A program made the position numbers and the translations under genes. From assembly GCF_056746865.1 (NCBI RefSeq), contig NZ_CM163382.1: a stretch of DNA of 64,000 bases; one strand, given 5' to 3'. The notes below the pieces were generated by a model, which did not search any database, was not told where the DNA came from, and saw only the letters and a list, made by a program, of their open reading frames with translations. Shown piece after piece: positions 26,108 to 27,893 of this stretch (position 1 is the first letter of the stretch; each line of letters starts with the position of its first letter).

Positions 26108-26890
26108 TTAACCACCATAAACATCAAAATCGAAGTACTTTTTCGCTAATTTCTCGTAAGTACCGTCAGCGCGCATTTCGGCAAAGGCTTTGTTCAGTGC
26201 CTCGCGCAGTTCGTTATCTTCTTTACGCAGGCCCATGCCGGTCCCTACGCCAAACAGTTTTTCATCTTTAACAGACGGACCACCGAATTTGTAATCTTTA
26301 CCGACGGGTTGTTTGAGGAAACCTTCGCTGGCAGCGACCTCATCCTGGAACGCGGCATCAATACGTCCGGCAGTCAGGTCAGAATAAATGTTGTCCTGCC
26401 CCTGATACGAGACGATTTCAATGCCTTTTGGTGCCCAGTGTTCGTTACCGAACGTCTCCTGGGTGGTGCCCTGCAATACGCCTACCCGCTTGCCTTTCAG
26501 CGACTCGACTGTCGGCTGAATGTCAGAATTTTTCGCCACCACCAGACGAGAATCGGCAGCGTACAGTTTGTCGGTGAAGGCTATTTCTTGCTGACGTTTT
26601 TCCGTAATGGAAAGCGATGACATGATGGCGTCAATCTTCTTCGCTTTTAAGGACGGGATTAACGCATCCAGTGGGTTTTCGACAAACGTACATTGCGTAT
26701 TGATGCGTTTGCACAACTCCTTCGCCAGATCGATATCGAAGCCAACCAGTTCGCCTTGTGAATTTTTTGATTCAAATGGCGCATAGGTCGGGTCGGTACC
26801 GATGCGGATGTTTTGCGGAATCGCAGCAAACGCCACAGTTGCGCTGGAGAAGGCCAGAACCAGAGAGAGCGATAGCACCAGTTTTTTCAT
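26108..26890 (-). CDS. hisJ: Periplasmic histidine-binding protein
   Basis: 260-aa ORF with signal peptide [22 protein letters not shown] and a type-II periplasmic binding fold. Confidence 0.95.
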
Positions 26891-27110
26891 AATGTCCTCA
26901 ACTGACAGTCTTTTTATAGGGAATATTTACAGGTTTGTTACACTTATCGTGCCATAAAATTGACCATCAAGGCAAAATATCCCGCCCCGTTAGACGTATT
27001 ATTTTTCATTAAAAATGCTTAAGTATGCATTTCAATGCACCACGATAGTGCAACAAACCTGGCGTGCACCATGATGATCATTCCATCAGGTACAGCTTCC
27101 CTGCGACGTA
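26891..27110 (-). promoter_or_regulatory. hisJQMP promoter region (between argT and hisJ)
   Basis: 220-bp AT-rich intergenic region 5' of hisJ; specific sites not resolved. Confidence 0.45.
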
Positions 27111-27893
27111 TCAGTCACCGTAGACATTAAAGTCAAAATACTTTTTCGCCATCTTGTCGTAGGTGCCGTCCTGACGCAGCTCACCAAGCGCCTTATTGAA
27201 GGCAGCCGTCAGTTCAGCATCATCTTTACGTAGCCCTACACCGGTGCCGTCACCGAAGTATTTTTTGTCTTTCACTGATGAGCCAGCAAAGGCGAAATCT
27301 TTACCAGCAGGTTGCTTGAGGAATCCTTCACTGGCAGCAACTTCATCTTGTAACGCAGCATCCAGACGTCCTGCAGCCAGATCGGAATAAACCAAATCCT
27401 GGTTGGCATAGGCCACCACATCCACGCCTTTGCTACGCCAGGTCTCGTTAGCGTATGCTTCCTGGGTTGATCCCTGCAGCACACCAACATGTTTACCTTT
27501 CAGTGAATCCACCGTTGGCTGAATCGGTGAACCTTTGGCGGCAATCAAACGAGAATCTGCGGCGTACAACTTGTCGGAGAAAGCAATCTCCTGCTGACGT
27601 TTATCGGTAATGGAGAGCGACGAAATAATGGCGTCGATTTTTTTCGCTTTCAGTGAGGGGATCAGCGCGTCAAAGTCACTGGCAACCCAGGTACATTTCA
27701 CCTGCATCCGTTTGCACATCTCGTTACCGAGATCGATATCAAAGCCAACAAAGTCACCTTTGGCATCTTTCGATGAGAACGGCGCATAGGTGGTATCGGT
27801 TCCGATACGTACCGTCTCCGGTAGCGCCGCATAGCAGGAAGCCGCTGCGGAGAGACCGACTAACAAAGACAGAGCGAGAATCGACTTCTTCAT
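27111..27893 (-). CDS. argT: Periplasmic lysine/arginine/ornithine-binding protein
   Basis: 260-aa ORF, tandem paralogue of hisJ (same length, conserved blocks such as KKIDAI.SSLSIT..RQQEIAF). Confidence 0.95.

Follow-up and report, generated by a model that had tools for sequence, protein, structure and literature searches.

How does a single locus supply two periplasmic binding proteins together with the one membrane complex that they share, how old is the pair, and what does the hairpin between hisJ and hisQ contribute? The locus that raises these questions, argT-hisJQMP, has been a founding model for ABC transport that depends on periplasmic binding proteins, here two for one membrane complex, for the discovery of REP sequences, and for the way in which subunit stoichiometry is tuned post-transcriptionally inside an operon. 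The copy described here lies in a 64,000-nucleotide stretch of an E. coli chromosome (the window) and is the textbook amino-acid transporter locus. The locus region is 100% identical to that of many E. coli strains and is found in 5424 of 5426 complete genomes; over the 4.5 kb of the locus, identity is 95–99% in most E. coli genomes. Genes, order, lengths, spacers and annotation are the same as in the argT-hisJQMP locus of E. coli K-12 and Salmonella typhimurium (dhuA/histidine permease). Nothing substantive differs from K-12, and the window contains another E. coli strain's copy. Compared with Salmonella, the hisJ-hisQ spacer of Escherichia is without REP sequences, and the sigma54-like element of hisJ has GT rather than GC at -12.

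All five genes are located on the minus strand, in the same order as in the RefSeq annotation of K-12. The first, argT (27111..27893; b2310 in K-12), encodes the lysine/arginine/ornithine periplasmic binding protein (LAO), which has 260 amino acids including a 22-residue signal peptide. A spacer of 220 bp (26891..27110), the hisJ control region, separates it from its paralogue hisJ (26108..26890), an open reading frame, also of 260 amino acids, for the histidine periplasmic binding protein. A second spacer of 89 nucleotides (26019..26107) leads to hisQ (25332..26018), annotated in K-12 as the permease subunit common to the ArgT and HisJ systems, followed by hisM (24619..25335, starting with GTG) for the second permease subunit and hisP (23838..24611) for the ATPase subunit. 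The start of hisM overlaps the stop of hisQ by four nucleotides, which suggests translational coupling, while the gap between hisM and hisP is seven nucleotides. These open reading frame coordinates agree with the preliminary description, in which two 260-residue genes in the same orientation, 220 bp apart, are followed by hisQMP after the second gene only; the membrane and ATPase genes are indeed downstream of hisJ alone, not of argT. Six nucleotides past the hisP stop codon, a consensus scan found a terminator-like hairpin (23808..23831, minus strand) with a 10-bp stem and the tail UAUUUCAUGG, predicted to be the probable end of the operon. On the 3' side of argT no convincing terminator was seen, and two papers treat argT as a member of a single argT-hisJQMP transcription unit (PMC9299463, PMC5927463).

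The identities of the five genes are certain. ArgT matches the NCBIfam equivalog NF011586 over residues 1–260 of 260 with 580.9 bits (cutoff 440), and scores 426.2 bits with the HisJ model, under that model's cutoff of 459. HisJ matches its own equivalog, NF011965, with 597.5 bits (cutoff 459), and the ArgT model with 433.3 bits, under the cutoff of 440. Both proteins score far under the ArtI and ArtJ cutoffs. HisQ (NF011714, 479.1 bits, cutoff 319), HisM (NF011651, 464.7 bits, cutoff 306) and HisP (NF007908, 577.6 bits, cutoff 466) provide the two permeases and one ATPase of HisQMP2, encoded directly downstream and each above its curated cutoff. From residue 23 onwards, ArgT matches the LAO chains of PDB entries 1LAF, 2LAO and 1LST (E around 1e-146) and HisJ best matches 2M8C and 1HSL (E from 1e-155 to 1e-158). 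When the two precursors are aligned pairwise, residue 74 (residue 52 of the mature proteins) is phenylalanine in ArgT and leucine in HisJ; we take this Phe52/Leu52 difference to be a putative determinant of specificity for lysine, arginine and ornithine binding.

That one transporter serves both binding proteins had been claimed from the sequence. The K-12 product names agree: they assign HisQ, HisM and HisP, as subunits, to the lysine/arginine/ornithine transporter as well as to the histidine transporter. Published studies agree too, and have both binding proteins docking on HisQMP2 (PMC6640053, PMC5708682). An ancient tandem duplication gave rise to ArgT, which serves lysine, arginine and ornithine, and to HisJ, which serves histidine; both feed the single HisQMP2 complex encoded downstream of hisJ.

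ArgT and HisJ align without gaps at 69% identity (BLASTP), and ungapped comparison of the genes gives identities of 67.9% for nucleotides and 67.7% for amino acids. The equal length, adjacency and common orientation of the two genes might also be expected if they had been duplicated recently or were kept alike by ongoing gene conversion, as might two blocks of around 80% nucleotide identity (nucleotides 241–345 and 511–600). However, synonymous sites are saturated (dS 2.6, with dN 0.23) and the genes share no identical run of at least 14 nucleotides. The identity peaks recur in all genera, and the fraction of identical codons in the two blocks (18 of 38 and 15 of 26) is similar to that overall (81 of 174), so the peaks reflect protein constraint. 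Nor did the E. coli pair exceed the pairs of all other genera in similarity over any 60-nucleotide stretch. Comparison of 80 related loci, around 76 of them with argT in range, shows that some 76 species of Enterobacteriaceae keep the order argT-hisJ-hisQ. Without exception, the upstream copy resembles ArgT (84–98% identical to ArgT, 66–72% to HisJ, in the approximately 76 loci) and the downstream copy resembles HisJ (88–100% to HisJ, 63–71% to ArgT, in the 80 loci). Wherever a species has both genes in range, orthologues are far closer to each other than paralogues, which again speaks against conversion or recent duplication; we regard either as extremely improbable. The pairwise check for conversion tracts that had been proposed thus gave none in E. 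coli and, with the saturated dS, gene conversion is rejected there. The pair is an old tandem duplication, as the saturated synonymous sites and the conserved order attest, in line with the classic duplication of the preliminary description.

The spacer between hisJ and hisQ contains, 24 nucleotides past the hisJ stop codon, the hairpin CUCCCUUCGG-GUAA-CCGGAGGGAG (26060..26083, minus strand), with a perfect GC stem of 10 bp. A stem-loop had been proposed at 26059..26085, and the stem found there folds stably. In the minimum free energy fold of the spacer, outer pairings widen the hairpin to 26040..26099. The full 89-nucleotide spacer folds with -33.2 kcal/mol (z = -3.34), while the 47-nucleotide piece that ends at the published RNA 3' end folds with -22.2 kcal/mol (z = -3.67), none of 200 shuffled sequences being as stable. 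A scan with Rfam covariance models of both strands of 23500..28400, at E-values up to 1, gave no match.

Two known classes of element were considered for this hairpin and rejected. A 78-nucleotide query from the spacer has a median of one place per genome (5425 genomes), and the K-12 annotation contains no repeat at this spacer; with a single copy in E. coli, the hairpin does not belong to the dispersed repeats of the REP/BIME type. There is no U-tract 3' of the stem, which is followed by ACAAGAGGCGG (tail ACAAGAGGCG), and the terminator scan made no minus-strand call here, which argues against a canonical intrinsic (Rho-independent) terminator. Accordingly, the hairpin falls outside both classes.

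Its function can be judged from published data, which for hisJ/hisQ decay come from one transcriptome-wide study (Dar & Sorek 2018, PMC5927463). In that study, hisJ-hisQ is among the gene pairs with differential decay, hisJ being the stabilised gene, and exactly the hairpin at 26060..26083 is given in S6 Table as the structure that protects hisJ on its 3' side, at a 3' end mapped by Term-seq. The 60-nucleotide sequence given there maps to 26113..26054 with one substitution, a synonymous change of the final hisJ codon that is the only difference between K-12 and the window in this segment. The RNA 3' end is located at 26054 (minus strand), six nucleotides downstream of the stem base. The half-life ratio of hisJ to hisQ is 3.7, for which the replicate standard deviation is given as NA, and the ratio is only 1.4 with the data of Moffitt 2016 (PMC5927463). 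The preliminary description had assigned to the hairpin a probable role in expressing the binding protein differently from the membrane components, and the published hairpin, 3' end and decay ratio corroborate this. It had named equal abundance of the hisJ and hisQ transcripts as the refuting observation; the published steady-state mRNA ratio is 5.8 ± 2.8 (PMC5927463), so the proposed role is not refuted. Among the ends listed in a second E. coli 3'-end study (the preprint of Adams et al., with tables centred on 5'-UTR and internal ends), none falls at K-12 positions 24259xx–24270xx.

We infer that the hairpin acts as a barrier to exonucleases rather than as a terminator, and that the nucleases take part as follows. 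Binding proteins have to outnumber the membrane complex by a wide margin; typically they are 10- to 200-fold over type I transporters (PMC12094219). The GC hairpin, with no U-tract, would form the 3' end of the hisJ-containing RNA. An endonuclease would cut in the distal hisQMP part, after which 3'-to-5' exonucleases would halt at the hairpin. The hisJ message would in consequence live about 3.7 times longer and build up around 6-fold over hisQ. A hairpin that serves as 3' protective structure of hisJ, with a shared HisQMP2 complex and an old duplication, is the best overall explanation, and very probably the right one.

A 3' end at the hairpin is, however, also expected of a weak terminator, and the folding z-scores of whole spacers are modest in many species, with a median of about -2. 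The hairpin might be a partial terminator or attenuator that lets fewer polymerases into hisQMP, differential decay being secondary. The Term-seq end six nucleotides beyond the stem would fit such a role, and the title of a cited reference links REP/BIME elements at equivalent positions to transcription attenuation. The steady-state ratio of 5.8 also exceeds the half-life ratio, whether taken as 3.7 or as the lower Moffitt value, which leaves room for an additional mechanism. Against attenuation, a U-tract is missing not only in E. coli but also in the Enterobacter-type spacers, the largest related group, where the stem is followed by AAAAGACACGG; the minus-strand terminator scan is silent at the hairpin, and Dar & Sorek selected pairs in which the difference in decay matches the difference in abundance (PMC5927463). 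We consider attenuation as the main effect unlikely.

Protection of hisJ by the hairpin also agrees with its conservation. A strong GC stem is present in nearly all of 77 distinct hisJ-hisQ spacers, with a stem sequence that varies by genus, and only in Salmonella and most Citrobacter do REP pairs take the place of the unique hairpin. In an alignment of spacers from Klebsiella, Kluyvera, Raoultella and Pluralibacter, 95.7% of the cells are paired, compared with 33–53% in controls with slid partners. This set has 40 double-change cells versus 15.6 ± 2.8 after shuffling (0 of 500), the double changes affect 7 of 11 pairs, and covariation scores 0.58, compared with 0.25 for shuffled data (0 of 500). 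The hairpin is kept across genera with compensatory changes. Were it incidental, for example a decayed repeat, the excess of hisJ would have to come only from translation efficiency and from the repression of hisQ by GcvB. The strong GAGGA Shine-Dalgarno sequence of hisJ, compared with the weaker AGGACAGG leader of hisQ, is consistent with this, as are the verified GcvB repression of hisQ (PMC9299463) and the mobile REP sequences found here in Salmonella and Citrobacter. An incidental hairpin is nevertheless very unlikely, given its retention with compensatory double changes despite full sequence turnover, its single-copy nature in E. coli, which is not that of a dispersed repeat, and the RNA 3' end that maps to it.

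The same spacer contains a target for the R1 region of GcvB. When GcvB duplexes were scored in R1-only scans over 30-nucleotide segments, the C/A-rich 5' leader of argT (CUGCAAACACACAACACAAUACACAACA, 27925..27952, minus strand) ranked first of 4172 segments of the operon, with -37.0 kcal/mol against GcvB nucleotides 63–92 (mean -12.0, standard deviation 4.0). The C/A-rich leader of hisQ (GUAAUUCACCACACACGACAGGACAGGCA, 26021..26049, minus strand), which includes the Shine-Dalgarno region, ranked fourth of the 4172 with -23.4 kcal/mol. Across species, the complementarity of the hisQ leader to GcvB is only slightly better than that of shuffled sequences (medians of -22.1 and -17.8 kcal/mol); this leader region is more conserved than the hairpin. 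GcvB represses a hisJ-hisQ intraoperonic fusion via R1, as verified in E. coli, and argT, verified as a GcvB target in Salmonella, is conserved as one in E. coli (Miyakoshi 2022, PMC9299463). The site in the hisJ-hisQ spacer is a second layer of repression specific to hisQ. When amino acids are plentiful, GcvB lowers hisQMP expression further through its R1 seed on the hisQ leader, and the argT leader bears an even stronger site.

The published 3' end at 26054 sits five nucleotides upstream of the R1 pairing region (26049..26021), so GcvB with Hfq could recruit RNase E to cut there. Hairpin and GcvB site would then be one coupled module, an idea that we put forward tentatively and hold to be rather unlikely. 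If correct, the cut would yield a hairpin-capped mRNA with hisJ only and hisQMP would be discarded, so that the supply of amino acids could tune the hisJ:hisQMP ratio, which would no longer be fixed.

Upstream of hisJ, 41 argT-hisJ spacers of Enterobacteriaceae were aligned. An NtrC-type dyad, a TGCATA-TTAAGCA/ATGCAAAAA block, a TTTGCC motif and a sigma54-like TGGCAC are invariant or nearly so. The predicted dyad TGCACCACGATAGTGCA (27036..27052; TGCACY-N5-RGTGCA) is perfect, is the only exact match within the 64-kb window and has a GGTGCA half-site that is invariant across genera; from its sequence, it would be bound by NtrC. The putative sigma54-like element of hisJ (TGGCACGATAAGTGTA, 26939..26954, minus strand), recognised from sequence and alignment, has an invariant TGGCAC at -24, while at -12 it has GT in Escherichia and GC in most other aligned sequences. 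For hisJQMP, a sigma70 promoter in exponential growth and two ARG boxes bound by ArgR have been described (PMC6640053). Scanning for sigma70 promoters called none for hisJ or argT, and a consensus search of the argT-hisJ spacer gave no ARG box with three mismatches or fewer, so the two degenerate ARG-box-like 18-mers of the TGCATA-TTAAGCA/ATGCAAAAA block (27031..27014 and 27010..26993, with four mismatches each) are placed by eye only. Transcription of argT is from a sigma54/NtrC-dependent promoter (PMC6640053). A sigma54 promoter-like element, TGGCATAAGACCTGCA (GG-N10-GC; 27962..27977, minus strand), is located 69–84 nucleotides upstream of the argT ATG and is one of two exact matches to TGGCAYNNNNNYTGCW in the window. 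The argT-hisJ spacer of E. coli folds unusually well (z = -5.75), as do those of most relatives. The 41-sequence alignment gave no consensus structure and no covariation, and a conserved RNA element was rejected: dyads specific to individual lineages, the TGCACC...GGTGCA palindromes of protein sites, account for the fold signal.

Several known systems resemble parts of this arrangement. In malE-malF, the operon also encodes an ABC importer and starts with the binding-protein gene, which is followed by a GC hairpin in the spacer, with an RNA 3' end at the hairpin base and a roughly 3-fold stabilised upstream segment (PMC5927463). The malE-malF structure is a REP/BIME, whereas the hairpin of E. 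coli hisJ is unique and single-copy. The Escherichia hisJ-hisQ spacers measure 88–90 nucleotides and contain the unique 10-bp hairpin, while those of Salmonella and most Citrobacter measure 138–190 nucleotides and contain a REP or an inverted REP pair of unrelated sequence. Between hisJ and hisQ of Salmonella, REP sequences were reportedly described by Higgins and colleagues in 1982 and by Stern and colleagues in 1988. These sequences occupy the same position with the same proposed post-transcriptional role, and the homologous protective structure of Salmonella is a REP (PMC5927463 S5). Like other members of the GcvB regulon, argT and hisQ have C/A-rich leaders complementary to R1, but the hisQ site is intraoperonic, between the protective hairpin and the start codon, not in a primary 5' UTR. 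The artPIQM-artJ genes are a second E. coli cluster in which paralogous binding proteins, ArtI and ArtJ, serve one complex (ArtQMP2); it is likewise regulated by ArgR, and artI, too, gains stability through differential decay. There, the binding-protein genes are in the middle of the cluster or on a separate transcript.

Genes, spacers and functional hairpin were correctly recognised from the raw sequence. Published K-12 experiments had already established that the transporter is shared, where the RNA 3' end lies, what the half-life and steady-state ratios are, and that GcvB represses hisQ; the observation as a whole is real but ordinary and in the literature already, and its confirmation at this locus adds no new biology. 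The comparison over around 80 Enterobacteriaceae species is a modest extension: the position of the hairpin stays while its sequence is swapped, sometimes for REP pairs, and the adjoining GcvB-complementary hisQ leader is, unlike the hairpin, retained as sequence. In a weaker reading, related to that of the coupled module, the intercistronic position may be a selected structural slot, filled independently by different genera with unique hairpins or captured REP sequences.

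The window comes from the E. coli chromosome. Many E. coli strains match a 4.5-kb query (23700..28200) at 100% identity, and 5424 of the 5426 complete E. coli genomes contain it once, at a coverage of at least 80%. One of the 5426 genomes has no match to this region, and two plasmid records contain a partial copy of the locus (60-80% identical). The minus-strand gene order is purF, ubiX, argT, hisJ, hisQ, hisM, hisP and rpnB, as in K-12. The coordinates and lengths in the preliminary description are all correct: argT (27111..27893) and hisJ (26108..26890) are minus-strand genes of 260 codons, separated by a 220-bp spacer, while 89 nt (26019..26107, minus strand) separate hisJ from hisQ. 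The hisQ and hisM genes overlap by 4 nt, followed by a gap of 7 nt before hisP. A terminator scan gives a terminator-like hairpin 3' of hisP and none convincing after argT, and argT-hisJQMP is handled as a single unit in two papers (PMC9299463, PMC5927463). The neighbour of hisP (22752..23642, minus strand) is annotated as rpnB in K-12; its product, an Rpn-family recombination-promoting nuclease (PD-(D/E)XK, transposase-like), scores above the family model cutoff and, with 470, below the RpnA equivalog cutoff of 583. The observation on argT-hisJQMP is confirmed and the earlier interpretation of the locus supported, with every element already known from work on E. coli K-12 or Salmonella.

The stem-loop proposed for the hisJ-hisQ spacer is real by structure prediction. 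In the RNA it reads CUCCCUUCGG-GUAA-CCGGAGGGAG (26083..26060, minus strand), with a perfect 10-bp stem beginning 24 nt past the hisJ stop codon. The 89-nt spacer folds with -33.2 kcal/mol (z = -3.34), and the 47 nt up to a published RNA 3' end with -22.2 kcal/mol (z = -3.67). The hairpin occurs once per E. coli genome, which rules out a REP-type repeat, and matches no Rfam family. Differential mRNA decay stabilises the substrate-binding subunit gene in E. coli ABC-transporter operons, including that for histidine (PMC5927463, Dar & Sorek 2018). The half-life ratio of the hisJ-hisQ pair, in which hisJ is stabilised, is 3.7 (given without a replicate SD; an independent data set yields a smaller value, 1.4), and its mRNA ratio at steady state is 5.8 +/- 2.8 (PMC5927463, S3 Table). 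The 60 nt preceding the Term-seq 3' end (S6 Table of the same paper) are those of the hisJ-hisQ spacer, with the 10-bp hairpin drawn at -19.9 kcal/mol. They map to 26113..26054 with one substitution (GGC/GGT, a synonymous change of the last hisJ codon), which puts the RNA 3' end at 26054, 6 nt beyond the stem. These data agree with the suggested link between the hairpin and differential expression of hisJ and hisQ.

How the hairpin acts is the least certain step, and the evidence on it comes mainly from one genome-wide data set. It may be a weak terminator, but the sequence 3' of the stem (ACAAGAGGCGG) has no U-tract and a half-life difference between hisJ and hisQ has been measured; for these two reasons we favour the reading that the hairpin may be an exonuclease barrier. 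The minus-strand terminator scan finds nothing at this hairpin. The published 3' end coincides with an A-rich stretch directly 3' of the hairpin (26054..26059), which reads ACAAGA in E. coli and AAAAGA in the Enterobacter group, and the A/AGA columns after the stem are invariant across 37 aligned spacers of the Escherichia/Enterobacter type; the stretch is possibly a trimming stop, or a cleavage or Hfq site. The folX-yfcH pair, also in the window, is on the differential-decay list as well (half-life ratio 2.15; PMC5927463), and its Term-seq 3'-end sequence maps, with 2 substitutions, to 21898..21957 (plus strand), within the yfcH coding region.

A strong GC stem is present in nearly all of 77 distinct hisJ-hisQ spacers, but its sequence is specific to the genus: Escherichia has CUCCCUUCGG..., Enterobacter, Lelliottia, Kosakonia and relatives have CCCCUCCC.../...GGGAGGGG, Klebsiella and Raoultella have CCAUCGCGCG..., and Kluyvera has CCCAUCG... 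variants. Unlike the single-copy E. coli hairpin, the spacers of Salmonella and most Citrobacter (138-190 nt) carry REP or inverted REP pairs. The homologous Salmonella structure is listed as a REP sequence (PMC5927463, S5 Table); REP sequences were reportedly discovered in the intercistronic regions hisJ-hisQ and malE-malF of Salmonella, the one in hisJ-hisQ being linked to post-transcriptional control. In 17 spacers of the Klebsiella, Kluyvera, Raoultella, Pluralibacter and Pseudocitrobacter type, 7 of 11 pairs of the consensus hairpin show double changes; the share of paired cells is 95.7%, compared with 78.4% when shuffled and 33-53% with slid partners, and the 40 double-change cells (15.6 +/- 2.8 when shuffled) were reached in 0 of 500 shuffles. 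An outer helix also covaries in the Escherichia/Enterobacter-type alignment (UA 27, CG 7; GC 28, CG 8). Whole-spacer z-scores across species are modest (median about -2), so the argument for the hairpin rests on its persistence despite sequence turnover, not on energy alone. The spacer of Citrobacter freundii M-21 is 289 nt long, compared with 57-190 nt elsewhere, and its Atlantibacter-like hairpin precedes about 190 nt of additional, highly structured DNA, which may be a small inserted element.

Directly 3' of the hairpin, the C/A-rich hisQ leader (26049..26021, minus strand; ...UUCACCACACACGACAGGACAGG...) is better conserved than the hairpin itself in the spacer alignments. The sRNA GcvB represses hisQ via its R1 seed, as verified with a hisJ-hisQ intraoperonic reporter, and argT is also on its target list (PMC9299463, Miyakoshi et al.). 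When the RNA of the whole operon was scanned in 30-nt windows against nucleotides 62-92 of K-12 GcvB, duplex energies averaged -12.0 kcal/mol (sd 4.0, all 4172 windows). The strongest duplex by a wide margin, -37.0 kcal/mol, is that of the argT leader (27952..27925, minus strand), and the hisQ leader comes fourth with -23.4 kcal/mol; in the comparison across species, the duplex of the hisQ leader has only a slight advantage over shuffled sequence (median -22.1 vs -17.8 kcal/mol). A very abundant RNA 3' end has been mapped to K-12 position 2427825, 34 nt before the argT start codon, for which a reporter did not show Rho dependence (10.1101/2020.07.18.207399, Adams et al.). By constant coordinate offset it falls at 27927 (minus strand), the 3' edge of the argT GcvB site.

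Upstream of argT, at a distance of 69-84 nt, the sequence TGGCATAAGACCTGCA is an exact sigma54-type element, in agreement with the sigma54/NtrC promoter published for argT (PMC6640053). The 220-bp argT-hisJ spacer is the hisJ control region. It contains an NtrC-type dyad (27036..27052), the sole exact match within the window, and a sigma54-like element, TGGCAC, upstream of hisJ (26939..26954, minus strand); a 41-sequence alignment also shows conserved blocks in it that are consistent with the ArgR boxes known from the literature. The -24 TGGCAC is invariant in these 41 Enterobacteriaceae sequences; at -12, Escherichia has GTGTA where most others have GC (in CTGCA, CCGCA or CGGCA, for instance). 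About 31 alignment columns, in which most other genera have an extra TGCACC...GGTGC dyad, are also missing from Escherichia. Together, these two differences suggest a sigma54/NtrC hisJ promoter partly decayed in Escherichia. The 220-nt spacer folds with -75.1 kcal/mol (z = -5.75). It holds a long-range inverted repeat (26929..26950 and 27039..27061) in which CAGGTTTGTTGCACTATCGTG can pair with CACGATAAGTGTAACAAACCTG, one arm overlapping the NtrC-type dyad and the other the sigma54-like element; the repeat finder gives a core of 15 nt that is 93% complementary, its arms being 102 nt apart, and by eye the repeat extends to about 21 bp. This extended complementarity is found in Escherichia only, and the 41-sequence alignment yields neither a consensus fold nor covariation, so the repeat may be a feature of the DNA, or a structure confined to argT read-through RNA.

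That ArgT and HisJ both use HisQMP2 is established knowledge (PMC6640053, PMC5708682), and the K-12 product names agree in giving one transporter for the two binding proteins. In NCBIfam, each protein exceeds the curated cutoff of the equivalog model that bears its own name and stays below that of its paralogue's model. The matches to solved LAO and HisJ structures begin at residue 23, consistent with a 22-residue signal peptide in both. Their tandem paralogy holds: they align without gaps, at 69% identity by BLASTP, and 176 of 260 residues are identical over the full length and 166 of 238 over the mature protein. The two genes are 67.9% identical in nucleotide sequence, with no identical run of 14 nt or more, and dN is 0.23 and dS 2.6 (NG86); synonymous sites are thus saturated. 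The pairwise alignment gives no conversion tract in E. coli. Two blocks (nt 241-345 and 511-600) reach about 80% nucleotide identity, but the same peaks are found in every other genus, the E. coli pair exceeds all other genera in no window, and identical codons at identical residues (18 of 38 and 15 of 26) are about as frequent as overall (81 of 174); the peaks thus reflect protein constraint rather than gene conversion. The longest identical run has a median of 20 nt across species; in Enterobacter asburiae, a 49-nt run shared by argT and hisJ (nt 538-586; locus L052, about 3426-3474) may reflect micro gene-conversion in other genera. Among 80 Enterobacteriaceae loci, one genome per species, the argT-hisJ-hisQ order is kept wherever upstream DNA is sufficient. 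Identity of the upstream copy is 84-98% with ArgT and 66-72% with HisJ; for the downstream copy it is 88-100% with HisJ and 63-71% with ArgT. The duplication is older than the radiation of the Enterobacteriaceae, and the two copies evolve independently.
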